Of a stretch of 64,000 bases of DNA, positions 12,201 to 43,468 are shown piece by piece (the first letter of the stretch is position 1; each line of letters opens with the position of its first letter). The position numbers were made by a program, and so were the translations under genes. Source of the stretch: Microcoleus sp. (GTDB taxonomy: Bacteria; Cyanobacteriota; Cyanobacteriia; Cyanobacteriales; Microcoleaceae); assembly GCA_042408215.1 (NCBI GenBank), contig JAYFMW010000020.1, positions 288,001-352,000 of the forward strand. Direction: 5' to 3'. The notes below the pieces were generated by a model. That model worked only from the letters and a program-made list of their open reading frames with translations, ran no database searches and was not told where the DNA came from.

Positions 12201-15187
12201 CCCCCGCCCCAACACCGACACCAACACCAGCGCCAACTCCGCTCAACCAACCGCCAGTCACCAACAATGCCAATCTAGCGATCGCGCCCAATAGCAGCGT
12301 CCCACTCCCCGGATTGGGAGGAACCGACCCCGACGGCTCCATCGCCTCTTATACAATCAACACCCTACCAACCGCAGCCCAAGGAGTCCTATTTTTAGGC
12401 GACCCAGCCCAAGGCGGAGTCGCTGTCACCCCCGGTCAAGTCCTGACTCCTGCACAGATTCAGCAGTTATTTTTCCAGTCCACAGGTACGTTCACCGGAG
12501 CCAACTTCAACTACACCGCTACTGATGACAAAGGTCTCAGCAGTCCTGCATCTGCGACTGTATCGGCCTTGCAGCCCGGAGTCAACCAACCGCCGGTGGC
12601 TAACAATGTCAATACGCCGATCGCCCCCAATAGCAGCGTCCCACTCACCGGACTCGGAGGAACCGACCCCGACGGGACGATCGCCTCTTATACAATAGAT
12701 ACTCTACCACCCGCAGCCCAAGGAGTCCTATTCTTAGGCGACCCAGCCCAAGGCGGAGTCGCTGTCACCCCCGGTCAAGTCCTGACACCAGCGCAAATTA
12801 GCCAGTTATTTTTCAAGTCCACAGGTACCTTCACCGGAGCCAACTTCAACTACAGCGCTACTGATGACAAAGGTCTCAGCAGTCCTGCGCCTGCGACTAT
12901 AGCTGCGATACCAGCCCCCGCCGCAACACCGACGCCAACACCAGCGCCAACTCCGGCACCTGTTCCGCTGCCGACGACCGCGCCAATTCCGGCACCAGTT
13001 CCGCTGCCAACACCGACGCCCAACCAACCGCCAGTCGCGACTAATGCTAACTTGAGCATTCCGCCGAACAGCAGCACACCAGTAACGGGATTGAGCGCAA
13101 CCGACCCCGACGGGACGATCGCCTCTTACACCATCAACACCCTGCCAACCGCAGACCAAGGACTGCTATTTTTAGGAGATCCAGCCCAAGGCGGAGTCGC
13201 TGTCACCCCCGGTCAAGTCCTGACTCCTGCACAGATTCAGGAATTATTTTTCCAAACGACTGGCAATTTTACCGGAGCTAATTTCACCTACAGCGCCACC
13301 GACAACAGCGGCGCTACCAGTCCTGCTACGGCTACTGTTGCTGTCGCACTTGGGCAGCCAACTCCGACGCCAACGACCGCGCCCATACCAAATCCGGTTC
13401 CCGAACCAGAAACAGACTGTCAGTGTCAGGCTGTTCTGGAAAAACCGGGAATTAACTTTTTGCCACCAACAGAACCGCCTGGGGTTTCCTTTAACAGCCC
13501 AGGCGCACAAGTCGCAGTTGAGGAACAAACTCTTAAAGGAACCAATGGTAACGACTCCATTCAGGGTAGCAACGCTAACGAAAAAATCATCGGTTTTCAA
13601 GGCCGTGACCTACTTTTAGGTGAAGGTGGCGCAGACGAAATTCACGGCGACGAAGACAACGACACCATTTTTGGCGACATCGGCACGGATATTGTTTACG
13701 GCGGCGACAACAACGATTTAATATTCGCCGGGAAAGACAATGACTGGATTGCTGGTGAATTAGGCTCCGATACCATTTTGGGCGATCGAGGTGCGGATAC
13801 GATTCTCGGAGACACCGGGCTGAACAACTCCCAGAGTCCTAACGATGCTCGCGATTTGATCTTCGGAGGCGACGGTGCAGACGTCATCAACGGTAACGAG
13901 GGCGACGATACCATTCATGCCGGCAAAGGTAACGATATTGCCCTCGGAGGTAAAAACAATGACCTCATCTGGGGCGAACTCGGCTCCGATACTCTGTTGG
14001 GCGGTACAGAAGACGACAGCTTATTTGGCGGAAACCCCGACAAGAGTGTCAGCGACGCCCAGGGACGCGACTTGCTGTACGGAGGTTTCGGCAACGACTT
14101 GCTCAGTGGCCAAGAAAACGAGGATACGCTGATTGGAGGCAAAGATCGCGATCGCGTTTACGGAGGCAAAGGTAATGACCTAATTTTTGGTCAATTAGGC
14201 TCCGATACCCTCTACGGCGGCGAAGGTATTGATACCATCCTCGGTGACAGTGGCAGTTCCAACTCAGTTGGTGATGCTGTTGAACAAGACTTCATCTTTG
14301 GTGGCACCGGTGGGGACTCGATCGCCGGCGGCAACGGCGATGATACCGTGCTAGCAGGTAAGGGCAACGATGGCGTTTGGGGCGGCAAAGATAACGACTT
14401 GATTTGGGGCGAACTCGGTAACGATACCCTTACCGGGGACAGTGGCGACGACACCCTGTACGGCGGGGTTCGAGGTTTAGTGAAAGATGCCGACGGAAAG
14501 GACTTGCTCTTTGGCAATATCGGTTCTGACTTATTATTCGGTGACGAAGCTGACGATACTCTCAGTGGCGGTAAGGGCAATGATTCCCTGTACGGGGGCA
14601 AGGGTAACGACCTCATCAACGGAGACAGCGAGGACGACTTAATTTACGGCGGTGATGGCAACGATGAGCTCTGCGGCGGCGAGGGCAACGATACCATCTA
14701 TGGCGATCGCGCAGATAACAAGGGCGTCCCAGTGGCTGCGGCCGGCCAGCAAGATTGCATCAACGGCGGTGCTGGTAATGACCTAATCTACGGCAACGAA
14801 GGGGAAGATACGCTCAACGGCGATGCTGGTAACGATACCTTGATTGGCGGTAAAGACAACGACATTCTGTTTGGAGGCGAAGGAGATGACTGGCTGTTTG
14901 GAGGCTTGGGTGACAATACTTTATCTGGAGGTGCCGGAAGCGATCAATTTATCTTGAGTGCTGGGAACGGCTCGAATACCATTCTTAACTTCCAGGTTGG
15001 CATCGATCAATTTGTGTTGACCGGTGGGCTGAGTTTCGAGCAGTTGCAACTCACCCCAACCCAGAACGGTACATTGCTGCGAATAGCAGGCACCGGGCAA
15101 GTTTTAGCGGACTTTGTAGGGGCCTCCGGTGCGATCGGCTCCTCTGATTTCCGATCGAATCTCTTGTCACCAACAAAATGGGTTTGA
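6278..15187 (+). CDS. Giant repetitive RTX adhesin / surface protein (DUF4347, lectin-like domain, DUF11 repeats, Pro/Thr linkers, Ig/cadherin-like repeats, Ca-binding RTX repeats)
   Basis: IHIVSHG...LLYGCNIA...GGDWELE (DUF4347); FKFGFAASTG (legume-lectin-like); ADLATTKTG repeats; NQPPV..TDPDG repeats; many GGxGxD nonapeptides. The ORF opens at 6170; the ATG at 6278 is an inferred start. Confidence 0.85.
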   Translation: MATTTLRGAGSKVETAHPKNLAIVDSKVENYEQLVRGVKRGTEVILLDPARDGIEQITEILGDRSGIDSIHIVSHGALAALQLGSTELNIHNLDTYSSQLQQWGKSLSESASILLYGCNIAAGESGLKFVQKIWELTGANIAASNNLTGSAALGGDWELEIAIGQINGELAFEKEVLEGYPSVLATLVTEDFKQTTVIGPWIYGTAGTSANPGLTAGAANNPNGVIPNLGTGDPAGSGALRLTSNTKSQAAFVLYNNPISSTDGLRVTFDFFSYNISADSSNNLGADGTSFFLIDGTATPTKAGGFGGSLGYAPNNNTAQTLSSTGISGGYLGVGLDEFGAFSVSQPGTGGRVGGDLAKPDSVAVRGRESTSYNFLTTASVPGGIDNKTNNINTTIRSDAKRSVQITLFPATSATPNRLTVAVNLNNNFDSNKNPIFDPGETLIDIPNLATTNGAVPSTFKFGFAASTGPSTNIHELNNLLVETVDTPTLTADVSIVKKGPQVAALGSTITYTIAATNIELSTSDAKDVLIQDILPPGLTGVSVSDGGTYNTLTRTVSWPVIPTLASGGSVTYTITAIAPATPTTITNVAYSNSSTFDPVPANNNSSLPTSKAITTITAVADLATTKTGPATETAGRTVSYTISTVNNGPNTAENVTITDSIIPDLTIVSISDGGTYNNGIVTFPAVTLTDKQTVNRTISFIAPAGVTVSNTASSKSSALDLTPSNDAATFTTTLTPSADLATTKTGPATETAGRTVSYTITTRNNGPSTAENVTITDSIIPDLTIVSISDGGTYNSGTGIVTFPPVTLTNTASTTRTISFIAPAGVTVSNTASSKSSALDLTPSNDAATFTTTLTPSADLATTKTGPATETAGRTVSYTITTRNNGPSTAENVTITDSIIPDLTIVSISDGGTYNSGTGIVTFPPVTLTNTASTTRTISFIAPAGVTVSNTASSKSSALDLTPSNDAATFTTTLTPTPTPTPTPPTPTPTPTPTPTPPTPTPTPTPTPTPPTPTPTPTPPTPTPTPTPPTPTPTPVNQPPVTNNANLAIAPNSSVPLPGLGGTDPDGSIASYTINTLPTAAQGVLFLGNPAQGGVAVTPGQVLTPAQIQQLFFQSTGTFTGANFKYTATDDKGLSSPASATVSALQPGVNQPPVANNVNLAIAPNSSVPLTGLGGTDPDGTIASYTIDTLPTAAQGVLFLGDPAQGGVAITPGQELTPAQISQLFFQSTGAFTGANFNYSATDDKGLSSPAPATIAALLAPAPTPTPTPAPTPLNQPPVTNNANLAIAPNSSVPLPGLGGTDPDGSIASYTINTLPTAAQGVLFLGDPAQGGVAVTPGQVLTPAQIQQLFFQSTGTFTGANFNYTATDDKGLSSPASATVSALQPGVNQPPVANNVNTPIAPNSSVPLTGLGGTDPDGTIASYTIDTLPPAAQGVLFLGDPAQGGVAVTPGRVLTPAQISQLFFKSTDAFTGANFNYSATDDKGLSSPAPATIAALLAPAPTPTPTPAPTPLNQPPVTNNANLAIAPNSSVPLPGLGGTDPDGSIASYTINTLPTAAQGVLFLGDPAQGGVAVTPGQVLTPAQIQQLFFQSTGTFTGANFNYTATDDKGLSSPASATVSALQPGVNQPPVANNVNTPIAPNSSVPLTGLGGTDPDGTIASYTIDTLPTAAQGVLFLGDPAQGGVAITPGQELTPAQISQLFFQSTGAFTGANFNYSATDDKGLSSPAPATIAALLAPAPTPTPTPAPTPLNQPPVTNNANLAIAPNSSVPLPGLGGTDPDGSIASYTINTLPTAAQGVLFLGDPAQGGVAVTPGQVLTPAQIQQLFFQSTGTFTGANFNYTATDDKGLSSPASATVSALQPGVNQPPVANNVNTPIAPNSSVPLTGLGGTDPDGTIASYTIDTLPPAAQGVLFLGDPAQGGVAVTPGRVLTPAQISQLFFKSTDAFTGANFNYSATDDKGLSSPAPATIAALLAPAPTPTPTPAPTPLNQPPVTNNANLAIAPNSSVPLPGLGGTDPDGSIASYTINTLPTAAQGVLFLGDPAQGGVAVTPGQVLTPAQIQQLFFQSTGTFTGANFNYTATDDKGLSSPASATVSALQPGVNQPPVANNVNTPIAPNSSVPLTGLGGTDPDGTIASYTIDTLPPAAQGVLFLGDPAQGGVAVTPGQVLTPAQISQLFFKSTGTFTGANFNYSATDDKGLSSPAPATIAAIPAPAATPTPTPAPTPAPVPLPTTAPIPAPVPLPTPTPNQPPVATNANLSIPPNSSTPVTGLSATDPDGTIASYTINTLPTADQGLLFLGDPAQGGVAVTPGQVLTPAQIQELFFQTTGNFTGANFTYSATDNSGATSPATATVAVALGQPTPTPTTAPIPNPVPEPETDCQCQAVLEKPGINFLPPTEPPGVSFNSPGAQVAVEEQTLKGTNGNDSIQGSNANEKIIGFQGRDLLLGEGGADEIHGDEDNDTIFGDIGTDIVYGGDNNDLIFAGKDNDWIAGELGSDTILGDRGADTILGDTGLNNSQSPNDARDLIFGGDGADVINGNEGDDTIHAGKGNDIALGGKNNDLIWGELGSDTLLGGTEDDSLFGGNPDKSVSDAQGRDLLYGGFGNDLLSGQENEDTLIGGKDRDRVYGGKGNDLIFGQLGSDTLYGGEGIDTILGDSGSSNSVGDAVEQDFIFGGTGGDSIAGGNGDDTVLAGKGNDGVWGGKDNDLIWGELGNDTLTGDSGDDTLYGGVRGLVKDADGKDLLFGNIGSDLLFGDEADDTLSGGKGNDSLYGGKGNDLINGDSEDDLIYGGDGNDELCGGEGNDTIYGDRADNKGVPVAAAGQQDCINGGAGNDLIYGNEGEDTLNGDAGNDTLIGGKDNDILFGGEGDDWLFGGLGDNTLSGGAGSDQFILSAGNGSNTILNFQVGIDQFVLTGGLSFEQLQLTPTQNGTLLRIAGTGQVLADFVGASGAIGSSDFRSNLLSPTKWV
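8139..9210 (+). repeat. Three ~360-nt tandem DUF11-type coding repeats
   Basis: Units 2 and 3 are essentially identical at DNA level. Confidence 0.85.
9387..13340 (+). repeat. 714-nt tandem coding repeats (five A+B pairs plus one diverged unit)
   Basis: Identical antisense ORFs recur at 9994, 10708, 11422 and 12136 (period 714). Confidence 0.9.
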
Positions 15188-15567
15188 AGCCCCGTCCTTA
15201 TAGGACGGCTTTAATTGTAAAACTTTGTTGCAATATCAAATATCTTGTGCTAAATAGCTGAGAATTTAGAAAAGCAAGTAAGAACAACCATCTACGTGTT
15301 GAAACGATATCAAAAGGTGAGACTCCTGGGTTGGATCGCTCCTCGGCAATGCCGAGCCTGTCCAAACACGTAATAGTGAATCGTTGAGCGTACCTAACTG
15401 GATTATTGGTGGACTCAGAAAGCAATCTAAAAACAAAAGTAAGCGCAACTGCAATACTTCTCGTACCAGTAGTTGTTTCGAGCGTGTAGAGGTGATTTGA
15501 CAGCGCCTTTAAGACTCAAATTGTGGTCTTAATAATCTCCGTGGCGTTGATTCCCGGAGAGTGTCAA
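15171..15567 (+). mobile_element. Non-autonomous ORF-less IS200/IS605 derivative (E1) with putative ncRNA core
   Basis: Target TCAC, left-end hairpin CCGTCC-TTATA-GGACGG, right-end hairpin ending GTGTCAA, tnpB-like tail remnant (CRGDLTAPLRLKLWS*). Confidence 0.75.
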
Positions 15568-15608
15568 AATAGGGTTAGCATTGGGGACTTTCGTCCCCAA
15601 AATCCTAC

Positions 15609-16295
15609 TTATAATTGCTTTCGCAAAAACAGTCGCCGCGGCTGTCCCAAAAGCCAATTACTCCAATGTCCATCCACTTGTTCCAAGCGATAGCCAGCCT
15701 GATAGTATAACTGTCGCGCTGCGTGATTATTTTCCAGAACGTGGAGGTAAATCTCATCAAATCCCCACTCTCGCGCAGTCTTCTCGCAGTTGCTGAGCAA
15801 CTCTTGAGCAACCCCCAGCCGCCGATACTCCGGGTGAACTGCTAAATTCGACAAATAAGGATAGTCCAAACTTGGTAGTTCCCAAGGGAGGCGAGAACGG
15901 AGGGCCATTTCTACGGTTCCGGCTAAACACTCGGCCCGGTTCGATCGATATTTATGTGTCCCATCCTCCATCGATGGTTCGACTGCGTTGATCCTGAGCG
16001 TATTCGAAGGACTCAGGATAAACGCAGTCGTTGGGCTCACCAAGCATCGCATCTCTACAACTAAGCAAATATAATGCTCCGACCCAGAACGGAGTCGATT
16101 TTTTAAATCTTCGTAAATACCCAACCGCAACACCGGATACAACCAATCCACAAACCCCTCACCAGAGTGAAAGCTGAGGGCCAGCAGATCGGCTAGCAGT
16201 GCCAGATCCTTAGACGCAGCCACCCGAACCGAAAAGCCAGAGCTGTCGGGGGTTGTTTGGTGGTGGGAGGTTGAGGGAAAAAAAGAAGGATTCAC
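15609..16295 (-). CDS. GNAT family N-acetyltransferase
   Basis: YLSNLAVHPEYRRLGVA..LL, LHVLENNHAARQLY. Confidence 0.9.
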   Translation of the reverse strand: MNPSFFPSTSHHQTTPDSSGFSVRVAASKDLALLADLLALSFHSGEGFVDWLYPVLRLGIYEDLKNRLRSGSEHYICLVVEMRCLVSPTTAFILSPSNTLRINAVEPSMEDGTHKYRSNRAECLAGTVEMALRSRLPWELPSLDYPYLSNLAVHPEYRRLGVAQELLSNCEKTAREWGFDEIYLHVLENNHAARQLYYQAGYRLEQVDGHWSNWLLGQPRRLFLRKQL

Positions 16296-16526
16296 AATTC
16301 CTTGCCGCTATATTGATTTTTTTTGTACAGACAGCCAGCCAGCCCAGTCAAAGGCTTAAAGATCAGTGCGCAAGATATCAGATATATCTCACTCTACCAC
16401 TGGTCGAACGACCCAGATTCCCACTTTTTTTTGCCAGCCCACCCCGCACTCTCGCCTGTCAGGAAAAAAGTAAGGGAAAAAAGCATCGAACCTTCAGGGA
16501 CGGGGATTCTTGTTTCAAAGATAGTC

Positions 16527-16575
16527 TATAGCACTTCTGTGTTAAATGAGATATTTAACACAGAAGTGCTATAGC
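16527..16575. repeat. Perfect 22-bp-arm palindrome (fused IS630-type MITE ends)
   Basis: CTATAGCACTTCTGTGTTAAAT-GAGAT-ATTTAACACAGAAGTGCTATAG. Confidence 0.7.
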
Positions 16576-16950
16576 GGTTTTATGAATGAAGTGAGGTACA
16601 GGAGGCAATTGGCAATTCACTTCTCTGAAAAGGAAACATCTATACTTCGACTACGCGAGCGTACAAGTGCCCTATGCCCTATGCCCTATGCCCCATCTTT
16701 GTTATTTGTTATTTGTTATTTGTTAGTTGACGGTTGACTGTTGACGGTTGACTGTTGACTGTTGAGTTTCTTCATTCCCAATGCCCTATGCCCAATGCCC
16801 CATGCCCTATGCCCTATGCCCCATGCCCTATGCCCAATGCCCCATGCCCAATGCCCAATGCCCTATGCCCTATGCCCTATGCCCTATGCCCAATGCCCTA
16901 TGCCCCATGCCCTATGCCCATGAGCACCTCCAGAAACCTGAGAAAGGCTA
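16572..16950. mobile_element. MITE family A (IS630/Tc1-like ends, TA-flanked) with STRR cargo
   Basis: TAGCGG...GTGAGGTAC and CACCTC...TGAGAAAGGCTA ends; interior (TGCCCYA)n, (TTATTTG)n and (GTTGACT)n. Confidence 0.6.
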
Positions 16951-17785
16951 TATATTCTCAACTAACCTGTAAGGTTCAAGGGTTTACCAATCACCGAAAA
17001 CAGTGCAAACAGATTAAATAAACTCGCCGATACCACTCGAAAATTATTTATTAAGAATGGTGCAAAATCTGAGCGATCGTCAATCTTTAAAAATGATTAT
17101 TTGTTGTATTGGCTTGAGCTTAAATTCGTAATTTAAGTTAAACATTTTGTTTCTTCTTTACCTACAGTCAGGGCTAGTCTTACCAAATAGACAACCATTT
17201 TCCTGTGTTGGCTATAGGAGCAGCGGCTGACTTAAGTCAGGGAATGCCCTCTGGTTTTTCGTAGTTGACATCTAGAGCGCTGGGCGAGCGTCGGAACAAC
17301 CTCGATCGACAATTCCTCACTAGCCTTATACTTTGTTACCAAGGACTCAGACAATCTCGATCGAGCTATGTGGCCGGTTTCCAGAGAGTACATCCCTGGT
17401 TAAGATTAACAGATGGATGCTCTCGCTTGCGGTAAAACACCCCAGTAATTGGCAATTTCAGGTCTGTAGGAGGCACAAAAGATGCGGATGATGGGGAAAA
17501 GACAGCAAGTCTCAGTCAAATAGTACAGCTAATTGGGTGACTCGCACAGACGCCTCCCTAGTCTGTGAATATCATTAATAATTGGGGTGTACCACAGAAA
17601 ACTGTGAATCAGAAGAATTCCGAATCGAGAACGGGTAGGTGAAATCAAGGTTTATCTTTGGTGCTGGCTAATTCACAACAACTTCAGATTGACGAACTCT
17701 TGTGACTTAAGCAATTGAAACAGGTAAATTCTTCCAAAATCAGACCGATTAAATTGAACAATCCCCAGGCACAGGAGAGCGGTGG

Positions 17786-20700
17786 ATGAATTCCCAAGAA
17801 AATCCTAAACTAAAAATTCTGGTCGTTGATGATGAACCGGATAACCTCGACTTGCTTTACCGCACCTTCCATCGGGAATACAAAGTGCTCAGGGCTGAAT
17901 CAGGCCCCGCCGCCCTAGAAATTTTGGCTAGATCAGGCGAAGTTGCTGTGATTATCTCGGATCAGCGAATGCCTAAAATGAGCGGTACGGAGTTTCTGAG
18001 TCTGACGGCGGCTCAGTACCCAGACGTGATCCGAATTATTTTAACTGGCTATACGGATGTTGAAGATTTAGTCGAAGCTATTAATGCTGGCAAAGTATTC
18101 AAATATGTTACCAAGCCTTGGGATGCTGAATCACTCAGAGCTCTTGTCCGTCAAGCGGTTGAAACTCACAATCTCCTGAAAGCCCGTACCAATGAACTGC
18201 GTAGGGCCCTCAGCCAAGAATCGCTGCTTTATGCTGTTACCAATACTATCCGATCGGCTCCCAACTACCAGCAGATGCTGCAAAGAATTGTGGAAACAGT
18301 CGGCCAGATGTTTGAGGTCAGTTGCTGTCTGCTGCGGCCGTTCCAAGATGGCTCTGTGGCAGATGAATGGTTCATCTACCAAGGTGCTGAAACGAAACGG
18401 CAAGATGCCGATGGTGTCTCGGAGGGCATCATGTCGCCAGATTTGCTGTCGCTGTTGGTCTGGGAAACTATGGAGGTGGAGGTGATTCAAGATGCCCAAA
18501 CGGACGATCGAGTTTTAAACTGGGAAAATGACCAGCGCTCGGAGGCTTACCGGGCTGCGAAGATCCGCTCTAGCTTAATCGTACCGCTGTTTTATCAACG
18601 GGAACTGATGGCAGTCTTGGCGCTGCACTCCTTCGAGCAGCCACGCCAATGGCAAGACCACGAGGTACAGTTGGTGACTACGGTGGCTGACCAAGCGGCT
18701 TTGGCACTTTCTCAAGCCCGGGCTTACGAACAGGTGCGGGCACTGGCAAAGCGCGAAGCTCTAGTTAATACTATTACTACGGCGATTCGATCGAGCCTCG
18801 ACCCCCAAAATATTTTTGCGGCGATTACTGAACAACTGGGACAAGCTCTACAAGTTGACGGCTGCGCGCTATCTCTGTGGACAGAAGACGACGAGTACGT
18901 CCAATGCGTGGGACTCTACGAAGCGACTAGCGATGCTGTTTCTGTACAAGAGGATTTTAACAGTCCGGGGATACTCCTTGTGACTCCCAGTATTGAGCAA
19001 GGGAATACCAGCGATCAAAGCAGCCCTCGCGCCTGGGTTTTGGCCCATTCTTCCCTACCGCAGTCTTTGGTGCCGATTCAAGGTAATCCGGTTTTACGGC
19101 AAGTTATGATGTCGAAACAGCCGGTGGTGATTGAAGACCTGGACGATCGCCCCGATCTAAATGTTACAGAAGTGCAACTGCGATCGCCCGCCCGCGCCCT
19201 GTTAGTCGTCCCCTTGCTCTGTGACGGCAAAATCATCGGCAGTATTTCCCTGCGCCAAAATACCCATACCCGCCGCTGGCAACCCTCAGAAATTGACCTG
19301 GCTCAAATAGTCGCAACTCAAGCTGCTCTGGCAGTACAGCAGTCCCGCCTCTACCAAACTACCAGACAACAGGCAGAACGGCTGCTAGAAGCCGATCGAC
19401 TCAAAACCGAGTTTTTCCAAAATATCTCTCACGAATTCCGCACACCCCTAACTCTGACCATCGGGCCTTTAGAGTCCGCCTGCGCCCGCCAAGAAGATTT
19501 GCCCTATGCACAAGCGGCCATCGCTCTTCGCAATTCCCGCCGCTTGCTGCGTTTGGTAAATCAACTGCTGGACTTGCAGCGGCTGGATGCCGGACGGATG
19601 CAGCCGAGTTTTCGCCCCTGCGATTTGGTGGGTTTCTGTTACTCTACCGCAGAGTCGTTCCGCGCCTACTGCGAGAAAAAAGGCCTGCATTTAATTACTC
19701 AATTACAAGACAGTCCTTTACTCTATTTGGATATTGAAAGATTTGACAAAGTTCTCTATAACCTGCTATCGAATGCGGTCAAATTTACGCCAGAAGGTGG
19801 AAGCATTACGCTGAAAGTCCAACCCGCTGGCGCTCACTGTTTGCTGCAAGTTAAAGATACCGGCATTGGCATTCGCACCGAACAAATTCCCTATTTGTTT
19901 GAGCGTTTCCGCCAAGCTGAGGGCTCTACCAACCGTTCCTACGAAGGCAGCGGTTTAGGTTTGGCACTGGTAAAGGAATTAGTGGAACTGCACGGCGGTC
20001 AAGTTTCGGTGGAGTCGGTTTATGGTGAAGGCTCTACTTTTACGGTTTGGCTGCACGTCGGTTCGACTCACTTACCTCCTGAACAGGTGCTGGAAATACC
20101 GGCGGAGTTTCACTCATCGAAAGCTGCGGTGGAATTGGCTGATGTGGAAGCCGATTTGTCTGATGCTGAATTTGCCTCTGAGAGTTTTGAGGGGATCAAT
20201 CCTGTAAGTTCAGAAACAGTCGTTGGCACTGTTTTGGTGGTTGACGACAATCCCGATTTGCGCTTCTATGTGTCGGGAATTCTGCGAGATTCCGGCTTTG
20301 CGGTTTTGCTGGCCCGCAACGGGGAGGAAGGATTTGCGGTGGCAAAAAACCGCCTCCCAGATTTGATTGTGACAGATTTAATGATGCCTTTGGTTTCTGG
20401 TTTGGATTTGATCAAGATGCTCCGAGAGGATGAGGAATTGAAAGGAACTCCGGTAATTTTGCTGACGGCTAAAGCTGATGAAGATACTCGAATAGAAGGG
20501 GTAGTACGGGGAGCTGATGCTTATTTGTCTAAGCCTTTTAACGATCGAGAATTATTAGCAGAAGTGCGGAATTTGATCGCCCTCAAACAAAATGAACGCC
20601 GGGTGCAGCAGTTGAATACTTATTTAACTGAGTCGGTGCTGCGCCGATTTTTGCCACCGGCGATGGTGAAGGCGGCGGCGGCGGGAGATTTGGCGCTGGA

Positions 20701-21440: not shown

Positions 21441-21489
21441 GATAGAGTCCGAGCGCTCGCTTATATTTATTGTTGAGTGCGAGTGATTG

Positions 21490-22564: not shown

Positions 22565-22604
22565 ATCAATAAAATAAGGGCGATCGCTGTTTAGGTATGA
22601 TATA

Positions 22605-30718: not shown

Positions 30719-31496
30719 GTGCGATTCGTTTAGCCTAAATGGATAGGTTCTCCTATCCAGGGACGGTTAGCCTGACTCCGCTGCGAGTTAGTGATAACTG
30801 ATTACACTTCTGGGTGAGACGTTAAGTCAAGTCCCAGTCCGCAGGTGCAGCGGTAAAAGCATATCCCCTATTTTGTTAGGTAGCAACTAACAGGATAAAG
30901 CGGGGATAAAAGGCAGAAAGACTCTTAGCCAAATGGAGTAGCTGTCGAGCCAGAACATATGCGTAGCGAAAGCAAAAATGTGTCTGAACCACCGTTATGA
31001 TAGATGGTCAAATGGCTGATAGACCAAGCCAAAAGGCAAGGATAGGGCATAAGCAATTATCGGATTGACTTATCAGCACTGCCCAAAAAACCCGGTGGAA
31101 AGCATTACGCTGTCATGTTCAACCAATGTGTAATCGGAACGAAGTAAAGCTCTCACAGCCCTTAAAAATAAGTAGGTTGCTAGCCGTAAGCTGTGAGTGT
31201 GAGGGATGGTTGCAGAAGCTAAAGCTCTGCTGTAATAGCAGAGATCTGCTGACAGCGCCCGGTGGTGTAAAAGATTGAGACTGAGTAACCCTTTAAAAGC
31301 CTAATGCCACAGAAAAATCTGATGGTGGGATGTAGGGGTAAAAGGAAAACTATCAAGCGGTATAAATCATCTCGTGATGCGATCGTACTGTATCCATAAC
31401 CAGGATTACATCACTCAGGAGCCGTGTGCGGTGAAAGTCGCAAGCACGGTTTTGTAGGAGAGATGGTGGGGGACACTCTGCCATCGACTCTCTAAC
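30719..31496 (+). ncRNA. ORF-less group II intron (IIB / chloroplast-like)
   Basis: 5' GTGCGATTCG; domain V GAGCCGTGTGCGGTGAAAGTCGCAAGCACGGTTT; domain VI hairpin ending AAC; EBS1 ACCCGG (31090) pairs with IBS1 TCGGGT; no RT ORF. Confidence 0.88.
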
Positions 31497-35405: not shown

Positions 35406-35410
35406 ATCGA

Positions 35411-36667
35411 ATGGTTGCTGAAATTATTTGTGTTGGCACTGAATTGCTGTTAGGCGATATTCTCAATAGCAATTCTCAGTTTTTAGCCAAGGAGTTAGCT
35501 AGTTTGGGAATTCCTCACTACTATCAAACAGTGGTGGGGGATAATCCCGATCGCATTAAACAGGTGTTAGAAATAGCTGTAGGGCGATCGCAACTACTGT
35601 TGTTTACAGGAGGCCTCGGCCCGACACCAGACGACCTCACCGTCGAAACTATCGCCGATTTTTTTGGCGTTCCCCTAATCGAAAGGCCGGAAATTATCGC
35701 CGACATCGAACAAAAATTTGCTCAGCGGGGGCGCACCATGAGCCCCAGCAACCGCAAACAAGCTTTAATTCCCGAAGGTGCGGATATTTTGCCCAACCGC
35801 AGCGGTTCTGCACCGGGGATTATTTGGCAGCCGATTCCCAACGTGACAGTGATGACATTTCCCGGCGTACCGGCGGAAATGCACTTGATGTGGCGAGAAA
35901 CCGCCGTTTCTTACCTGAAAAATAAGGGATGGTGCTGTGGAACTATTTACAGCCGCACATTGAAATTTTGGGGCATTGCTGAGTCGGCCCTCGCTGAAAA
36001 AGTAGATGATTTTCTCAATTTAACTAATCCTACTGTTGCTCCCTACGCCAATCATGGCGAGGTCAAACTGCGAATTTCGGCTCGCGCTGAATCGGAAGCA
36101 TCGGCGAAAAACTTGATTGAGCCGATCGAACAACAGTTGCGACAAATCGCCGGTTTAGACTGTTACGGTGCTGATACCGATACCCTCGCTTCTACTGTCG
36201 GCCAATTGTTACTCGATCGCGGGGAAACTCTCAGCGTAGCTGAATCCTGCACGGGAGGAGGATTGGGGGCGATGCTGACTGCTGTTGCCGGCAGTTCGGG
36301 CTACTTTTTGGGCGGGGTGATTTCCTATGACGATCGGGTGAAGGAAAAATTATTGGGTGTCAAGCCGGAAGATTTAAGCGAATATGGTGCTGTCAGCCAC
36401 CAAGTGGCAAAACAAATGGCCGCAGTCGTGCGATCGAGCCTTAACACCAGTTGGGGATTGAGCATTACAGGTATTGCTGGGCCTGGAGGTGCCACTGACG
36501 CTAAACCTGTCGGACTGGTTTATATCGGTTTAGCGGCGCCAAATGGCGATTCCCACAGTTTTGAATACCGCTTCGGCGATGCGCGAGGCCGCGATTGGAT
36601 TAGAAATCTCAGTATTTGTACGGCTCTCGATCGACTCCGCCGGTATGCGATCGAAGAGTATTGTTGA
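35411..36667 (+). CDS. cinA: Competence/damage-inducible protein A (CinA with PncC domain)
   Basis: AEIICVGTELLLG, GGLGPTPDDLT, AESCTGG, SITGIAGPGG; start ATG 35411. Confidence 0.93.
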   Translation: MVAEIICVGTELLLGDILNSNSQFLAKELASLGIPHYYQTVVGDNPDRIKQVLEIAVGRSQLLLFTGGLGPTPDDLTVETIADFFGVPLIERPEIIADIEQKFAQRGRTMSPSNRKQALIPEGADILPNRSGSAPGIIWQPIPNVTVMTFPGVPAEMHLMWRETAVSYLKNKGWCCGTIYSRTLKFWGIAESALAEKVDDFLNLTNPTVAPYANHGEVKLRISARAESEASAKNLIEPIEQQLRQIAGLDCYGADTDTLASTVGQLLLDRGETLSVAESCTGGGLGAMLTAVAGSSGYFLGGVISYDDRVKEKLLGVKPEDLSEYGAVSHQVAKQMAAVVRSSLNTSWGLSITGIAGPGGATDAKPVGLVYIGLAAPNGDSHSFEYRFGDARGRDWIRNLSICTALDRLRRYAIEEYC

Positions 36668-36977
36668 CCAAAGGCTATAAAATATCAAGCGAATTGTCAA
36701 TTGTCAATAGTTAAAAACGATCTTAAGATTTATTTAATGTTCTTCATTCCGAAAGAGTGCGGCAATTTTCGGCTTTCCTCTTGATTATCTGTAAAGATTC
36801 GTTATGATAATAAGGTAAGACTGATTTGCAAATACACTGACTCTCTCCGTTGCTCAAAACAACATCCCGAGAGAAAGCAGGTTTGACTCTGGCTTTCAAA
36901 GTTGGGCTTGCTTATTTTCAGAGATTTCACCGTCGGTTCAGAAATCAAGACCATAAAAAAAAGGAGCTATCCGTTCA

Positions 36978-37115
36978 ATGGAAGACATTGAAAAGGTGCT
37001 GGAACAAATTAAAGAATGGGTTCGCAAGCTGATAGAAGGACTGCTGAATCCAGATGCTCAACCGGAACTGGAACCTATTCCGATTCCAGTCAACCAACCG
37101 AGATATCGCCGGTAG
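36978..37115 (+). CDS. Small 45-aa protein not in the ORF track (MEDIEKVLEQIKEWVRKLIEGLLNPDAQPELEPIPIPVNQPRYRR)
   Basis: AAGGAG upstream; amphipathic helix followed by a PIPIPV tail. Confidence 0.65.
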   Translation: MEDIEKVLEQIKEWVRKLIEGLLNPDAQPELEPIPIPVNQPRYRR

Positions 37116-37213
37116 TCTGGACTGGATTTGAGGTTTGAGACTTGAGATTTGAAACTGGTTCTAAACCTAAAATCAAAACTCTCAATACTTTTGTTGCGCT
37201 GGAATTTTGAAAA

Positions 37214-37654
37214 TTGTTAAATATCCTGGTACTGCACGGCCCTAATCTAAATCTATTGGGTCAGCGAGAACCTGGAATGTATGGTTCTGCAACTTTAAAT
37301 GAGATCAACAATTTGCTAGAGCAAGAAGCGGACTTGCTCCGGGTGAAAGTCTCAATCCAGCAGTCTAATCACGAAGGAGTCTTGGTGGATTCCATTCACT
37401 CGATGTTAGGGCACCATCAAGGTTTGTTGATTAATGCTGGAGCTTATACTCATACGAGTGTGGCAATTAGGGATGCGATCGCAGCGGTGAATCTCCCTGC
37501 GGTAGAAGTTCATCTGAGCAACATTTATCGGCGGGAAGCTTTTCGGCACCACTCGTTTATAGCAGCGGTGGCGATCGGGCAAATCAGCGGTTTTGGCTCA
37601 GATAGTTATCGCCTAGGGCTGCAAGCTCTAGTTAGTCACTTGAAGAAAAATTAA
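37214..37654 (+). CDS. aroQ: Type II 3-dehydroquinate dehydratase
   Basis: [45 protein letters not shown]. Confidence 0.96.
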
Positions 37655-37954
37655 AAATTTACCGATGATGGCGATCGTCGGATGAGGGTGGGTTTTTTGA
37701 TGAAGAAGCCAGCCCTTATATGTTTGGGCTTAATTCAAAGTAAACAGATTTCAAAAATATAGCCGGAACTGGAAGGAAAAAGGAAGAAGGAAGAAGCAAG
37801 AACACGGATTTTGACACGGATACACGGATTAATTATCGAGGGTGAGTCAGAAGTCAGATGTTGAAGGAAGAAGGAAGAAGTCGATGCGATCGGGCAATTC
37901 CCCGCAAGGGTTTCAGGAATTAATAAGGTCTGGTGGAACCTGGTTGCTATAAGA

Positions 37955-38041
37955 AATAACCAACAACAAATAACAAATAACAAATAACAAATAACAAATA
38001 ACAAATAACAAATAACAAATAACAAATAACAAATAACAAAT
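37955..38041. repeat. STRR (TAACAAA)n
   Basis: About 11 tandem copies directly before the next ATG. Confidence 0.9.
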
Positions 38042-39187
38042 ATGCGCCATTCCCTGTTAAGCAAGTTTCAAGGAGTCTTACTGGGCTCGGCTTTAGGAGA
38101 CTTGATCGGCGATCGATGCCAAAGCCAACTCCTGGGTATTTCCCCACAAACAGCAGAATTGTGGCCGATTGTCAAGCTGACTAAACACCAAAAGTTGCCG
38201 CTAAATGGGAGGATGTCGGAATTGAAGTCTGTGAATGGCAAAGTCCAAATTGGCAAAAACTCATCCGAGTGCGGGAGGCTTGCTGTTGCTTGTGCTAAAA
38301 GTTTAATTCGGTGCAATGGTTTAGATTTAAAAGATTGGCGTGACACTTGGGAAGTATTTGCCTCCTCAGAACATTACCAGCAGCAGATTGCGGAATGTCA
38401 AAGCATACTGCACCCTGGTGAAGCTGCGGTGGCTGCGTTACCAGCAGCTATGTTTTTTCATGAAAATCAAGCCAAGTTGCGAGAAAAACTCATGCTCGCG
38501 ACAGAGGTGTGGCAGAACCAAAACGCGCCAGAATGGGAAACAGGAGTTTTAGCAGTAGGATACGCGATCGCCCGATCGCTCAAAGACAAACTTGACCCCG
38601 CCACAGCAATTGTGAACACAATTACTTACCTGGGAACCGATAATGCCTTAACAGAGCTGCTTTCCCAAGTACAAATGCTATTAGAACAGGAAGCCGATTT
38701 AGAAAGAGCCGTAAATCACCTCTGCAAGAGCGGAACAGCTTGGCAAACAAGGCAGAGTGAGGGTGAAAAAAAATCACAAACAAACTCAATTGTCAACCCT
38801 ACAAGTTTCATCCCGATCGCGATCGCTTTTTACTGCTTTCTGAGCACCCCAGAAGACTTGCGGTTGTCCGTGGTCCGGGCTGCGCGGTGTGGTGCTGGGC
38901 AATTAACCTGTGCTCTGACGGGAGCTTTGTCTGGAGCGTACAACGGTACTGTCGCGATTCCCGTAGAATGGCGACAGGCAATCTCGGCTGGGGTTGAATG
39001 CCTGGTGCTAGATGAGGGTGGAGAGTCCTCGGTCTGGGGAACCAGCAGTGATGGGAAAATTGTAGAGTTAGCAAATAACCTGTTTGCTGTTTGGGCTGGA
39101 GTTTACACTCCCTGCGACGGCGCGCGATCGGCAGCCCGGTTTCCGGTGGTGACAGCACCTTATGTAATTAGACCGCATAAAATATAA
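38042..39187 (+). CDS. ADP-ribosylglycohydrolase-like protein (degenerate motifs)
   Basis: KFQGVLLGSALGD..G N-terminus; ALTGALSGAYNG..AIP.EW. Confidence 0.75.
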   Translation: MRHSLLSKFQGVLLGSALGDLIGDRCQSQLLGISPQTAELWPIVKLTKHQKLPLNGRMSELKSVNGKVQIGKNSSECGRLAVACAKSLIRCNGLDLKDWRDTWEVFASSEHYQQQIAECQSILHPGEAAVAALPAAMFFHENQAKLREKLMLATEVWQNQNAPEWETGVLAVGYAIARSLKDKLDPATAIVNTITYLGTDNALTELLSQVQMLLEQEADLERAVNHLCKSGTAWQTRQSEGEKKSQTNSIVNPTSFIPIAIAFYCFLSTPEDLRLSVVRAARCGAGQLTCALTGALSGAYNGTVAIPVEWRQAISAGVECLVLDEGGESSVWGTSSDGKIVELANNLFAVWAGVYTPCDGARSAARFPVVTAPYVIRPHKI

Positions 39188-39382
39188 ATTTGTGAGATTT
39201 TAAGTAGGGATAAATCCAGATTCAAACTGGAATTGAAGCAAAAATAGGTCGAAGTTTTATAGAGGTTGGCAAACCAGCAATTAACAATTAACCAGGGGAA
39301 TGGGAGGGAGAGGGATAATTAACAATAAAAAAATCAAAATTAAAGATTGGGATGGAAAGGAAAGCAGAAGTAGAACCAAGAG

Positions 39383-39504
39383 AGGGCAGGGCAATGCCGA
39401 TGCCCCTAGGTCTGAGGGCACGGCAATGCCGATGCCCCTAGGTCTGAGGGCACGGCAATGCCGATGCCCCTACGGGTCGGGCACGGCAATGCCGATGCCC
39501 CTAC
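39383..39504. repeat. Tandem ~32-bp REP-hairpin array (4 copies)
   Basis: GGGCACGGCAATGCCGATGCCCCTA units. Confidence 0.85.
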
Positions 39505-39536
39505 GGCTGAATAAAAGTCATATATCTTCGACATAA

Positions 39537-42137
39537 ATGAATACGCTCTCCTCGTTGATGCGGCAGATTGAGCAGCTAGGGCCTGCGCGCTCGCTGCGGC
39601 AACACATTGCTAAGATGCACAATCGTGGCATGAAAGCAGATCCCGATCGCCCTGGCGGGAGTCTCCTGAACGGTTGGCTGCGCTCGACCTCCGCTCGACT
39701 TGATAGTTTTACTCCTTCTCAAAGTAAAACTTCCAAATCGTACCTCAAAAATCCAGCTCGTTCCCCCCTATTGCTGCTGATAGCAGTAGTTTCCCTCAGC
39801 AGCACTCTTGGGCACCGCTTCTATAACCAGCCGAAACTGGATGTGGGAACCTTATCTCCTCAAACGATTAAGGCACCACGGACGGCAAGCATTGCGGATT
39901 ACAAAACGACAGAAGAGCAGCGGACAACTGCGCGGATAGGGGCTGTAGCGATCTTGAGGCTCGATCCGGCGGTCGATCGCCAAATCGATCGAGAATTGCA
40001 ACTATTTTTGCAACAGGGCAACGAAATGCGCTCTGCTGCTGGATCGTTTCCGTTGGTGTCCTCTTCGATCCTCTCAACGGCGGTTCAGCTTTACCTGCGG
40101 GGCTGTGCGGAGTGGGAGTGGCGATCGATTTTGGCGCAAGTAGGTGACGACGGTGCAACTTCTGGGCGGTTGAGTTGGGAGTCGCCGGGAACTCCTGCAC
40201 AGACGGGGAACCAATCTCAGCAGGATGCTGTGGCTCAACTGCAAGCTTACAGTCGATCGGTCTCTTCATCAGAATTCAAAAGCCTGACAGACAGTATCGA
40301 CTTAGCTCGCAGGCGCTATCTCAATACTTTGGATGCTATGGCCAAACAATCAGTTTCCGGGTACGGACTAATTTACGATACTTCGCTGTTTGATTTGTCC
40401 GATGCAGCTTGGCAAGAAACCCAAACGGGTATCAGTTTGGCGGCAAAAATGATGCTGGCTCAAGGTATCCCCCAGGGGTTGCCGAAAGAGGTTTTGAAGG
40501 AAGCGGCGAGACTGCAAGTCAGGGAGCGAGTGCCTTCTGTTTCCCAAGCTTTGGCGGTTGAGGCTTTAACGGCGATTTTGCAGCCAAATCTGGTTAGAGA
40601 TCCCGAGGGAACCAAACAGCTAGCTGAATTGGCTGCGAAAAAGGTGAAACCGGTGACGATCGTCGTGGAGCAAGGCGAGACAATTGTGGCAGAAGGAGAG
40701 ATCATTTCTGGGCAAGATTTCGTGTTGCTGGATTATTTTGGTTTAAGCAGGCGGGGAGTGAATTGGCTGGGGCTGGCGGGGTTTGTGTGCTTAGTCGGTG
40801 GGGCCATTGCGATCGTACTGCTGGTAGAGAGGCATTACCGCTTGCGCCGGAGAGATCATTTGCTGCTGTTGTTGTTGACTTTGAGCGCGCCGGTGCTGGT
40901 GAGTTTGGGGCTGCCTTGGACGAGTTTGCCCGCGATCGGCATATTAGCCGGTGGCTTCTACGGTTCGGCGGTGGGAGTGACTGTGGTGGGGCTGCTGTCG
41001 GTGGTGCTACCCATTGGCTTGGAACTTGACTTGATCCATTTGGTGGCTAGCGCGGCGGCGGGATTGCTGGGTGCTTTCATGTCGGGGCGGCTGCGATCGC
41101 GCGAGGAATTGGCTCTTTTGGGCGTGGCGATCGGCTTGACTCAGAGCATGATTTATCTCCTGGGGACTTTAATTGCCAGCGCTGCTTCGGGTTCAATTTG
41201 GTACGTTTTGCTCGGTAGCGTGGGTTCCCAAGGTTTAGCCGGTTTGGCTTGGAGTGTTGTGGCGATCGGCTTGAGCCCTTATTTAGAACACGTTTTTGAT
41301 TTGATTACACCGATCCGACTGGCGGAATTGGCCAATCCCAACCGCCCGCTGTTGAAGAAGTTGGCAGCAGAGGCTCCGGGGACTTTTCAGCACACGCTGT
41401 TTGTGGCTAGTTTAGCGGAGGCGGCGGCGCGGGAACTCGGCTGCAATGTGGAGCTGGTCAGGACTGGGACATTATACCACGATATTGGAAAAATGCACGA
41501 TCCGATCGGATTTTGCGAGAATCAAATGGGCGGCGTCAATAAACATGATGAAATGAATGACCCTTGGGCGAGTGCTGATCTGATTAAAAAGCACGTTAGC
41601 GAAGGGTTGGTGATGGCGCGCAAGCATCGATTACCTAAAACGATTCAGGCATTTATCCCGGAACACCAAGGAACAATGTTGATCGCGTATTTCTATCACC
41701 AAGCGCTGCAAAGTGTTGCTCAAGAGGCTGCTCAAGAAGCTGCTCAAGAAGCTGCTCAAGAAGCTGCTCAAGAAACAGCAGATTTAAAGAATACTTTAAC
41801 CGATGCTGAAAGTCCAAAATTGAAATTTAAAACTCGTGAAGTGAGGGAGGAGGATTTTCGTTATGACGGGCCAATTCCGCAGTCGCGGGAAACGGGGATT
41901 TTGATGGTGGCGGATTCTTGTGAGGCGGCTTTGCGATCGCTCAAGGATGCCACCCATGAAGAGGCTTTGAACATGGTTAATAAGATTTTGAGGGCTCGCT
42001 GGCAGGATAATCAGTTGATTGATTCGGGTTTAACGCGGGAGGATATGGCTCTAATTGCGGAGATTTTTGTGCGGGTTTGGGAACAGTTCAATCATAAGCG
42101 TATTGCTTATCCTAGTGCGGTTTTTACTTCTAGATAA
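39537..42137 (+). CDS. 7TM-HD (HDIG) family metal-dependent phosphohydrolase, PgpH-like
   Basis: APGTFQH, YHDIGK, KKHV.EG, EHQGT, FRYDGP.PQSRE, ADSCEAA; seven hydrophobic segments. Confidence 0.9.
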   Translation: MNTLSSLMRQIEQLGPARSLRQHIAKMHNRGMKADPDRPGGSLLNGWLRSTSARLDSFTPSQSKTSKSYLKNPARSPLLLLIAVVSLSSTLGHRFYNQPKLDVGTLSPQTIKAPRTASIADYKTTEEQRTTARIGAVAILRLDPAVDRQIDRELQLFLQQGNEMRSAAGSFPLVSSSILSTAVQLYLRGCAEWEWRSILAQVGDDGATSGRLSWESPGTPAQTGNQSQQDAVAQLQAYSRSVSSSEFKSLTDSIDLARRRYLNTLDAMAKQSVSGYGLIYDTSLFDLSDAAWQETQTGISLAAKMMLAQGIPQGLPKEVLKEAARLQVRERVPSVSQALAVEALTAILQPNLVRDPEGTKQLAELAAKKVKPVTIVVEQGETIVAEGEIISGQDFVLLDYFGLSRRGVNWLGLAGFVCLVGGAIAIVLLVERHYRLRRRDHLLLLLLTLSAPVLVSLGLPWTSLPAIGILAGGFYGSAVGVTVVGLLSVVLPIGLELDLIHLVASAAAGLLGAFMSGRLRSREELALLGVAIGLTQSMIYLLGTLIASAASGSIWYVLLGSVGSQGLAGLAWSVVAIGLSPYLEHVFDLITPIRLAELANPNRPLLKKLAAEAPGTFQHTLFVASLAEAAARELGCNVELVRTGTLYHDIGKMHDPIGFCENQMGGVNKHDEMNDPWASADLIKKHVSEGLVMARKHRLPKTIQAFIPEHQGTMLIAYFYHQALQSVAQEAAQEAAQEAAQEAAQETADLKNTLTDAESPKLKFKTREVREEDFRYDGPIPQSRETGILMVADSCEAALRSLKDATHEEALNMVNKILRARWQDNQLIDSGLTREDMALIAEIFVRVWEQFNHKRIAYPSAVFTSR

Positions 42138-42208
42138 GGGGAATTTGGATGGAAAGAGGTTTTTAACCGCAGATGAACGCGGATAAACGCAGATTTTTGA
42201 TGTTGATT

Positions 42209-43075
42209 TTATCCTTTAACTCCGGTGGCTGTTTCTGTGGGTACAATGTATTTTTGCAATATCAAAAATAGTCCTAAAACTGGTACAATGGAAATAATGG
42301 AACCCGCCGCAACTAAACGCCAATCTAAGGAAAAGGTCCCGGCTAAATTGGCGACTCCTAGGGGTAATGTGTAATATTCTGGTCTGTCTAAAACTAGCAG
42401 CGGCCACAAAAAGTCGCTCCAAGAACCGATAAATACGAAAATTCCTAATGTGACTAATGCTGGCTGAATTGCTGGAATCATTATGTGCCACCAAATGCCT
42501 AGTTCGCTACAGCCGTCGATGCGGGCTGCTTCTTCTAGTTCTTTGGGAACTGCGAGGAATGCTTGCCGCAATAAAAATATGCCGAAGGCTGATGCTAATC
42601 CGGGAAAGATTACGCCTAAATAACTATTTTTTAGTCCTAGTTGTACTGTCAATACATATAGGGGAATCATCACGATTTGGAAGGGAATCATGATTGTGGA
42701 AATGATGGTAATTAATATGGCTTCGCGGCCGCGAAAGTTGCTCCGGGCTAATGGATAAGCTGCTAGGGCACAAAACAGGACGTTGATGCTAACTGTGAGG
42801 GTGGCGATGAGGGTGCTGTTGAATAGGTAGCGCCCGAAGGGGTTGGTTTGCCAAACTTTGATGAAGTTTTGCAGGGTTGGCTGTTGTGGCCAAAGTTGCG
42901 GGGGAAATTGAAAGATGTTTTCGGTTGGGGATTTGAGGGAGGTGCTGAGCAGCCACAACAAGGGGAATAGCATTAAAAGGGCGATCGCACTCATGATGCT
43001 GTATGTCCACAGGGTTTTCCACTGGGAGGGAGTCGTGTTTGGGGAATTTGGTTTTTTTGTTTTGAAATTGTTCAT
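42209..43075 (-). CDS. Carbohydrate ABC transporter permease
   Basis: ELEEAARIDG EAA motif, WSDFLWPL; ATG at 43075. Confidence 0.92.
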   Translation of the reverse strand: MNNFKTKKPNSPNTTPSQWKTLWTYSIMSAIALLMLFPLLWLLSTSLKSPTENIFQFPPQLWPQQPTLQNFIKVWQTNPFGRYLFNSTLIATLTVSINVLFCALAAYPLARSNFRGREAILITIISTIMIPFQIVMIPLYVLTVQLGLKNSYLGVIFPGLASAFGIFLLRQAFLAVPKELEEAARIDGCSELGIWWHIMIPAIQPALVTLGIFVFIGSWSDFLWPLLVLDRPEYYTLPLGVANLAGTFSLDWRLVAAGSIISIVPVLGLFLILQKYIVPTETATGVKG

Positions 43076-43080
43076 AAAAA

Positions 43081-43468
43081 TAATACGGGATGCGGGCAAC
43101 GAGCGAGTCTAAAGACCTGAGAGGGAAGCGACTCGTGCGGTTTTAACCGCCGTGGTATTGAAAATGTGCTAGAATTTGAGTTGTGAGTAAGAACAAAAAC
43201 ATCTACGTGTTGAAACATCCTAGTATCGGAGAAATCCCAGCAACTTAGTACACAAGAGTGAGAGTTAACACAAAAAGAGCGGTGGGATGGCTGGATGTTG
43301 AGCGTACCGTGTCTTGGCTTAGTGATGGATTCTGAAAGCATTGGAGACAAAAGTAGCTAGTAACTATCGCTTGACGATTGGTGACTAAGTAGACGGCGTT
43401 TGACGGCCGTAGCGAGAGTTTTACTCTGTCAGCAGAATCGAGCGTGTCTTTAGACCTGAGAGTGTCAA
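43081..43468 (+). mobile_element. Non-autonomous ORF-less IS200/IS605 derivative (E2) with putative ncRNA core; left boundary approximate
   Basis: Similar subterminal hairpins GAGCGAGTCTAAAGACCTGAGAG (43101) and GAGCGTGTCTTTAGACCTGAGAG (43440); GAAT...TCAA right end; core blocks shared with E1. Confidence 0.7.

Follow-up and report, generated by a model that had tools for sequence, protein, structure and literature searches.

Promoter-bearing, RNA-only IS200/IS605 elements of Microcoleus carry a covarying 5' RNA domain with a probable counterpart in tnpB codons

Among transposons of the IS200/IS605 group, the PATE-like elements described in G. stearothermophilus (Meers et al., bioRxiv 10.1101/2023.03.14.532601) have no open reading frame (ORF), keep both transposon ends and are mobilised in trans, their omega-RNA being proposed to serve the TnpB of another element. 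Standalone omega-RNAs working in trans have been reported as mobilised guides with neither effector nor transposase, whose effector loci lie in the same genome and whose role was termed unknown (Altae-Tran et al. 2023, PMC10691335). In ISDra2, the TnpB omega-RNA (reRNA) has a scaffold overlapping the 3' end of tnpB, a pseudoknot formed with the 3' end and a guide taken from the flank; the primary RNA reaches into the RuvC codons, and the omega-RNA is undetectable, and reported to be degraded, when TnpB is absent (Nakagawa et al. 2023, PMC10097598). Such degradation of the free RNA raises the question of how a guide supplied in trans can persist and be loaded. Here we describe a family of ORF-less IS200/IS605 elements that offers a concrete candidate answer, a covarying 5' RNA domain present in hundreds of natural variants and amenable to deletion and mutation. 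Two members, E1 and E2, lie in a 64,000-nucleotide (nt) stretch of a Microcoleus sp. genome (genome G000, contig C20, positions 288001-352000), hereinafter the window, to whose numbering coordinates refer unless a contig or locus is named.

E1 and E2 are supported, by their sequence organization and by alleles that lack them, as mobile, promoter-bearing, RNA-only IS605 elements (Table 1). At an empty E1 site in G152:C616 the TCAC-ending left flank abuts the right flank with no duplication, and a contig of RNA run X6 represents an empty E2 allele, connecting 43075 to 43469 without overlap and omitting exactly 393 bases. These empty sites fix the ends, so that E1 spans 15171-15567, exactly as in the original prediction made for this stretch, E2 spans 43076-43468, its start having been placed near 43081 in that prediction, and neither insertion duplicated its target, as expected for IS200/IS605 elements. 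Further copies occur in the genome in unrelated flanks, at 99% and 95% identity to E1 and at 99.5%, 98.7% and 94% identity to E2, and the E1-type left end is found at more than 100 places. Both elements have subterminal hairpins at the left and right ends and terminate on the right in TCAA; intact tnpA ORFs lie downstream of E2-type left ends on contigs C13 and C30. As neither predicted guide has a match of transposon-adjacent motif (TAM) plus 10 nt elsewhere in the genome, the target of each would be its own empty site, which agrees with homing as modelled by Meers et al. The left end of E1 provides the stop codon, at 15187, of an upstream 3005-residue ORF (6170-15187, + strand). Glycine-rich repeats near the end of this ORF are presumably RTX-like. 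E2 sits within an apparent promoter (43060-43490; TTGAAA, 16 nt and TATGAT in the empty allele) of a downstream gene that we take to be rpsF, and its predicted guide spans the -10 box of that promoter.

The core shared by the two elements is no chance resemblance: a covariance model gives 120 bits for E1 and 123 for E2, both of which belonged to its training set, against 15.5 for the next-best place in the window, and identifies them as two of 22 family copies in the genome. An iterated nucleotide hidden Markov model (HMM) returned 26 matches there, 22 of them near full length, and the ordered blocks that had been pointed out in E1 and E2 are all in place and collinear. The elements have a common layout, in which the left end is followed by an extended -10 promoter, a 5' RNA domain of ~150 nt, an omega-RNA with a pseudoknot derived from a tnpB tail, and the right end. 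An exact-pattern scan of species genomes found at least 113 stretches with the 5' domain pattern, and most of the 80 titles listed from it are Microcoleus, Nostoc, Scytonema, Calothrix, Dolichospermum and Tychonema. The family is present in several cyanobacterial families, with covariance-model matches in 14 of 151 genomes of the phylum (G000 included; 19 candidates per genome scored). Among 122 HMM matches in loci L021-L163 (including three G000 duplicates; 21 of the loci were discarded for want of an HMM match, being mostly chance pattern matches outside cyanobacteria), the tail stands directly after the 5' domain in 115; of the seven exceptions, five run up to the end of a contig or locus, one is split by another ORF and one, in a Rhizonema genome (L030:1690-2205), has the 5' domain attached to a different tail, resembling that of family F (see below). 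In none of the 122 does the 5' domain lie within a tnpB element, and no intact tnpB followed by a long guide is seen among them. The same succession holds in 60 of 62 metagenome loci (57 of 119 having been discarded for the same reason) and in all 18 covariance-model loci displayed, weak ones included, some of which are eroded orthologous copies. The 5' domain pattern had no match in viral contigs, nor the E2 domain in plasmids; copies are mostly intergenic, and in the loci examined the domain was never seen outside IS605 elements. It is carried by ~7-8 left-end types, in place of the two first proposed. Eroded copies that occupy the same position in different genomes of the genus Microcoleus (L145, L155 and L156; L146 and L163) represent old vertical inheritance with erosion, and another copy (L012, G000:C5:594900-596000) is interrupted by two nested IS605-type elements, followed by a HEARO element placed tail-to-tail.

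The 5' domain is an independently folded, strongly covarying RNA. On 63 distinct sequences, a 30-pair structure, derived from the same alignment on which covariation was scored, has 92.6% of its cells paired, and 18 of the 30 pairs vary in both partners; 0 of 500 shuffles attain this, and slid controls give 26-47%. Some columns were fixed by the search pattern, and their invariance is to that extent built in. The compensatory changes include G-U pairs and a tertiary pair. The latter belongs to a T-loop-type hairpin, which is closed by two G-C pairs and has a loop of 5 nt and a bulge of 2 nt, the second bulge base covarying with a junction base (CG in 31 and UA in 25); hairpin and bulge pairing fit the type II T-loop of PMC2258182. 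The original prediction had paired TACGTGTT with AACACGTA in E1 around a CTCGGC hairpin. The conserved pairing instead joins UACG with CGUA of the GAGCGTACC block, and the CTCGGC hairpin falls in a variable region; GTTGAAAC forms part of a helix. The structure rests on covariation, since single-sequence folding of E1 and E2 is not better than that of shuffles (z 0.21 and 0.68). The comparison with Rfam that had been proposed matched no family over E1 or E2 at the gathering score, and no fitting family for E1 or 20 family loci below E=10. A search for cross-pairing between domain and tail yielded three 5-bp candidates with at most one compensatory cell each and no shared covarying helix, and the domain has been reshuffled relative to both the tails and the left ends (Spearman 0.34 and 0.19, respectively).

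By sequence homology, the 3' ~130 nt are the omega-RNA of a cyanobacterial TnpB clade that lacks the zinc finger (N-termini MFGCQQ, MGVQQ or MYAVQ). Of 103 tail matches in the genome, 44 are 3' ends of tnpB genes, all from one clade, and the tail begins at the RKV codons, past the last RuvC aspartate. The likeness to tnpB 3' ends first remarked on is thus one of homology; the peptides then quoted require a frameshift, as the reading frame is disrupted in the tails of ORF-less copies. The stems and pseudoknot are nevertheless retained there: the pseudoknot pairs are kept in 54/55, 54/55, 55/55, 51/55 and 54/54 ORF-less copies, the fifth, variable pair appearing as CG (36), UA (12), AU (4) and UG (2), and they lie outside the hairpin required by TnpA. 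Three TnpB proteins of the clade were tested and match NF040570; no relative of the clade was found in the PDB by sequence. Left end and tail indicate the same tnpB family in several cases, pairing C5:345546 with C14:68914, C20:243840 with C3:428589, and C30:559681 with C20:35179. The left end and tail of the E2 group match tnpB elements of the MGVQQ type, with an intact tnpA in two of them, and intact TnpB candidates for E2 with a TCAT TAM are encoded at C17:184824 and C30:397855. For E1, an intact candidate at C30:459961 shares the TCAC TAM and has a modest tail match, while the best left-end match is C6:122239, whose TAM reads TTAC; since these two differ, the E1 partner is less certain. 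The catalytic D-E-D residues of the intact candidates were read from their sequences.

Immediately upstream of the 5' domain, TG-n-TAnnnT is present in 56 of the 67 distinct copies and absent from all 67 control windows 60 nt further upstream, which, with the lack of any ORF, bears out the proposal that these are promoter-bearing RNA-only elements. A generic promoter scan made no call at the expected place in E1 or E2, because it requires a -35 box. Transcription of the element is hinted at by RNA contigs. Fourteen RNA runs contain 44-64% of sampled words, and in the four examined, contigs cover the RNA part of E2, with depths of 361 (run X1) and 85 (run X7), where the downstream gene has 45 and 31 and the upstream flank 0-8; they extend from E2 into the downstream gene. 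These contigs are a weak hint only, as the element is multi-copy and they give no strand, start or level; parts lacking coverage (the left end; the 5' domain in run X6) are uninformative. In one contig of run X1, joined at 43189, the 3' end of a group II intron abuts the start of the 5' domain, which suggests insertion of such an intron, or its reverse splicing, into a family copy.

We consider it likely, from comparison with tnpB sequences, that the 5' domain descends from tnpB's 3' coding region. When 18-column blocks of the domain were scanned along a 1161-column tnpB profile, the T-loop block fell on the codons for PKxGEKP (rank 1 of ~1140 positions), 2 nt off collinearity with RKV (-128 against -130 expected), the P2 block on GLYR (rank 1), and the blocks at the 5' and 3' ends of the domain on ETEESY and LINAD (rank 2). 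The blocks are collinear with the tnpB codons from RuvC-II to RKV, the domain starting at the RuvC-II codons. The summed anchored statistic exceeds that of all 46 shifted anchors, and column shuffles reached it in 0/300, 1/300 and 0/300 cases in three settings. The tnpB genes themselves appear constrained at the RNA level in this region: over 45 sequences the glycine of GEKP is encoded by GGY in 43/43 (background 46%) and the lysine by AAA in 44/44 (63%), the glycine that comes next by GGG in 27/28 and the arginine of GLYR by CGN in 37/38, counts that overstate the case to the extent that the tnpB sequences are related. Seven of the 8 most constrained silent sites (236 sites, 25 full tnpB genes) lie within the last 61 codons. 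The tnpB hairpin is closed by a 6-bp helix in two registers tracking two subclades, with 180/192 and 68/78 cells paired in the own register versus 38/78 and 102/192 crosswise, and the hairpin pattern fits 38/45 tnpB coding copies and 56/63 domains. A sister ORF-less family, B (16 copies), has a short leader that corresponds to the tnpB codons V-G-E-K-P-D-N-W-Q-P-S-G (0/200 shuffles) and folds into the T-loop hairpin found in the 5' domain; judged by this match, family B is a remnant derived directly from those codons.

Several results speak against this descent. The anchored test failed in one of four settings (39/300 shuffles), and its anchor was picked after the similarity had been noticed; an unanchored profile-profile alignment of domain and tnpB was not significant (20.5 vs 16.4 +/- 3.1); pairwise alignments fell in the expected region in 1/63 cases as against 2/63 for shuffled sequences; the covariance model gave no convincing score in 7 tnpB loci (12.5 bits at most); and for family C any likeness to tnpB fell short of significance. 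On the whole the evidence favours tnpB descent, so that of the extra conserved 5' module in the original prediction the covarying RNA stands (18/30 pairs) and its separate origin gives way. That prediction had also named collinearity with tnpB, combined with a lack of covariation, as the mark of a plain deletion derivative; as covariation is present despite the collinearity, the 5' module is not a simple deletion relic.

We lean towards E1 and E2 being trans-acting guide cassettes, in which the 5' domain, freed from coding constraint, would aid RNA stability or TnpB loading. They would be non-autonomous elements reduced to an RNA gene and mobilised by the TnpA of an autonomous relative, and the promoter just inside the left end would drive an RNA of ~290-330 nt through the right end into the flank. 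By analogy with known systems, the 3' omega-RNA would load a TnpB produced elsewhere, which would cut the empty site, the element being restored by recombination. The 5' domain would stem from an RNA structure within the RuvC-II-to-RuvC-III codons of the tnpB mRNA that was compacted and rewired after loss of the ORF; it would now keep the protein-free RNA from being degraded, aid its recognition and processing by TnpB, or both, and so enable the RNA to capture TnpB in trans. For protection and/or recognition and processing as its actual job we see the chances as about even. Such a role is favoured because the ISDra2 omega-RNA is undetectable without TnpB and because TnpB normally excises its guide from its own mRNA (PMC10278001), an advantage denied to an RNA-only element. 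It is weakened by single-copy elements that have promoter and tail without the 5' domain, and for the existence of which the domain is therefore unnecessary, and by the equivalent 5' region of ISDra2, which is dispensable and trimmed off (PMC10097598). Also to be set against the model are the exact TnpB partner of E1, which is not pinned down, the E1 promoter, which departs from consensus, and the nature of the RNA evidence, contigs with the limits given above. More tentatively, and with the balance of probability rather against it, this TnpB clade might carry a second, hidden RNA domain in its RuvC codons, required for guide biogenesis or loading, which cyanobacterial RNA-only elements (family A, that of E1 and E2, family B and perhaps C and D) repeatedly freed and optimised, thereby outcompeting the tnpB mRNA for TnpB. 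If so, such elements would live as RNA parasites on a transposon and would also be guide scaffolds already optimised by nature.

The plain alignments and covariance-model search that did not connect the domain with tnpB would fit a captured foreign structured RNA (riboswitch-like, a ribozyme, or an intron or host RNA fragment) functioning independently of TnpB, and so would the T-loops with bulge pairing known in adenosylcobalamin (AdoCbl) and flavin mononucleotide (FMN) riboswitches (PMC2258182), the reassortment of domain and tail with no common covarying helix, and the one copy on a different tail type (L030). Such an origin is unlikely given that no Rfam family matches, that the domain was never met outside IS605 elements, and that the same hairpin stands in the tnpB mRNA at the same distance from RKV with constrained silent sites. 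An mRNA segment adjoining RuvC-II inhibits cleavage by AmaTnpB (PMC10278001), and the domain starts at the RuvC-II codons; together with the large number of RNA-only copies, this raises the thought that the RNA is a decoy or regulator, binding TnpB or another factor and damping or sequestering the nuclease instead of homing its own element. We regard this as quite improbable: the tail retains the full scaffold with its pseudoknot, left end, TAM and tail follow cognate families, and no domain-tail pairing able to misfold the scaffold was found. Conservation by shared descent and TnpA copying, with no RNA function, would make the family inert deletion relics akin to miniature inverted-repeat transposable elements, a view that draws on the erosion of old orthologous copies and on the multi-copy kin that raise the counts. 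It is very improbable, being largely refuted by compensatory changes that extend to G-U pairs and a tertiary pair, and it sits ill with a promoter at a fixed position, a pseudoknot retained outside the TnpA-required hairpin, and conservation across cyanobacterial families.

Table 1. Features of E1 and E2 in window coordinates.
Feature	Coordinates	Strand	Basis or remark
E1	15171..15567	+	PATE-like IS200/IS605 element without ORF; copies in other flanks, empty site
E1 TAM, TCAC, outside element	15167..15170	+	kept at empty site in G152:C616
E1 left-end hairpin	15189..15209	+	read from sequence
E1 candidate promoter: TTGCAA, 17 nt, TG-n-TAAATA	15228..15256	+	predicted from sequence; weaker than family consensus
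E1 5' RNA domain, helices P0-P5	15276..15424	+	120 bits (covariance model); covariation
E1 T-loop-type hairpin	15315..15327	+	counterpart of tnpB G-E-K-P codons
E1 omega-RNA scaffold from tnpB tail	15435..15567	+	stem 1, pseudoknot loop 15497-15501 pairing with 3' end, right-end hairpin 15537-15559, TCAA
E1 predicted guide (right flank)	15568..15585	+	length assumed from known TnpB systems
E2	43076..43468	+	IS200/IS605 element without ORF; copies in other flanks, empty-site contig
E2 TAM, TCAT, outside element	43072..43075	+	joint 43075 to 43469, run X6
E2 predicted extended -10 promoter, TG-n-TAGAAT	43167..43175	+	predicted start near 43182; family-wide conservation
E2 5' RNA domain	43185..43340	+	123 bits (covariance model); covariation
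E2 T-loop-type hairpin	43227..43239	+	covariation, tnpB hairpin comparison
E2 omega-RNA scaffold	43349..43468	+	matches MGVQQ-type tnpB tail; pseudoknot loop 43400-43404
E2 predicted guide (right flank)	43469..43486	+	target is the empty site only

The genome contains other ORF-less families with leaders of their own, among them B, C (16 by motif count), E (5) and F (3), with loci at G000:C3:436994, C1:90967, C6:423249, C6:849497, C20:566907 and C30:313526; Rfam searches below E=10 on 9 loci of other ORF-less families gave no fitting family. Family D (G000:C5:299391, - strand; L183, L192-L221) is an ORF-less IS605 family with a promoter, a different leader of ~150 nt in which a GGYGGCGAAAACC motif is conserved, and a tail belonging to another TnpB clade; it has matches in 19 of 151 genomes of the order, and among its 20 hits none has a tnpB and no cognate tnpB was found. 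The window also holds a 778-nt group II intron without ORF (30719-31496, + strand; Rfam RF00029 at 31417-31493), present in five genome copies at 99.9-100% identity, four of them in a common target that ends in CAATTC(C/T)GGT and the window copy in a variant site. A link between this intron and the E1/E2 family was dropped, its five copies occupying other targets.

Comparison with other described systems set several resemblances aside. The T-loop has the same two closing G-C pairs, 5-nt loop and 2-nt 3' bulge with long-range pairing as the type II T-loop of AdoCbl and FMN riboswitches (Barrick and Breaker 2007, PMC2258182), a likeness at the level of the motif only, the first loop base here being often A; as to identity with these riboswitches, there is no Rfam match and no regulated gene downstream, the domain being followed by the omega-RNA tail instead. 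The HEARO/IscB omega-RNA model (RF02033) is unmatched, the sole HEARO hit being the separate neighbouring element in L012; an IStron is rejected, there being no Rfam intron hit, an end in TCAA where IStrons have a 3' terminal G, and mostly intergenic copies. Type V-U2 identity of the TnpB clade is not shown: PADLOC returned weak Cas12f-type matches only, and no repeat-spacer array was seen at the loci displayed, where no systematic array search was made. Resemblances to Cas12k tracrRNA, the hammerhead and domain I of group IIC introns were checked through Rfam only and dropped. No description of the 5' domain or of its hidden counterpart in tnpB codons was found in the literature covered, with supplements and most subscription journals outside its scope, and the accessible portions of PMC6293099, PMC3610870, PMC13565253, PMC10640517 and bioRxiv 10.1101/2023.11.20.567912 do not describe the domain.

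E1 and E2 share the testable features of an already known class, the PATE-like elements and standalone omega-RNAs; what appears to be new is the conserved 5' domain and its putative hidden counterpart in tnpB codons. Unlike the PATE-like elements, whose trans mobilisation and service to a foreign TnpB are likewise proposed for E1 and E2, the present family has a conserved promoter of its own and a ~150-nt covarying 5' domain, maintained across cyanobacterial families and exchanged among many end types; the accessible portions of Meers et al. mention no domain of this kind. From the standalone omega-RNAs of PMC10691335 it differs in following a single zinc-finger-less TnpB clade and in its additional folded domain, with function in trans being our proposal here. 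If the origin in tnpB is true, the domain would clearly exemplify the escape of an RNA structure from inside a protein-coding gene; a functional element could then be lost when these TnpBs are codon-optimised or their guides trimmed, and guide scaffolds made with the freed domain may prove more stable. In ISDra2 the 5' part of the RNA is disordered, not required and removed by trimming, and the authors conclude that there is hardly any overlap between the functional regions of gene and RNA (PMC10097598). In contrast, the corresponding codons here appear to be under RNA-level constraint and the RNA-only elements retain a folded version of them, which, if the proposed origin holds, would contradict that non-overlap for this TnpB clade.

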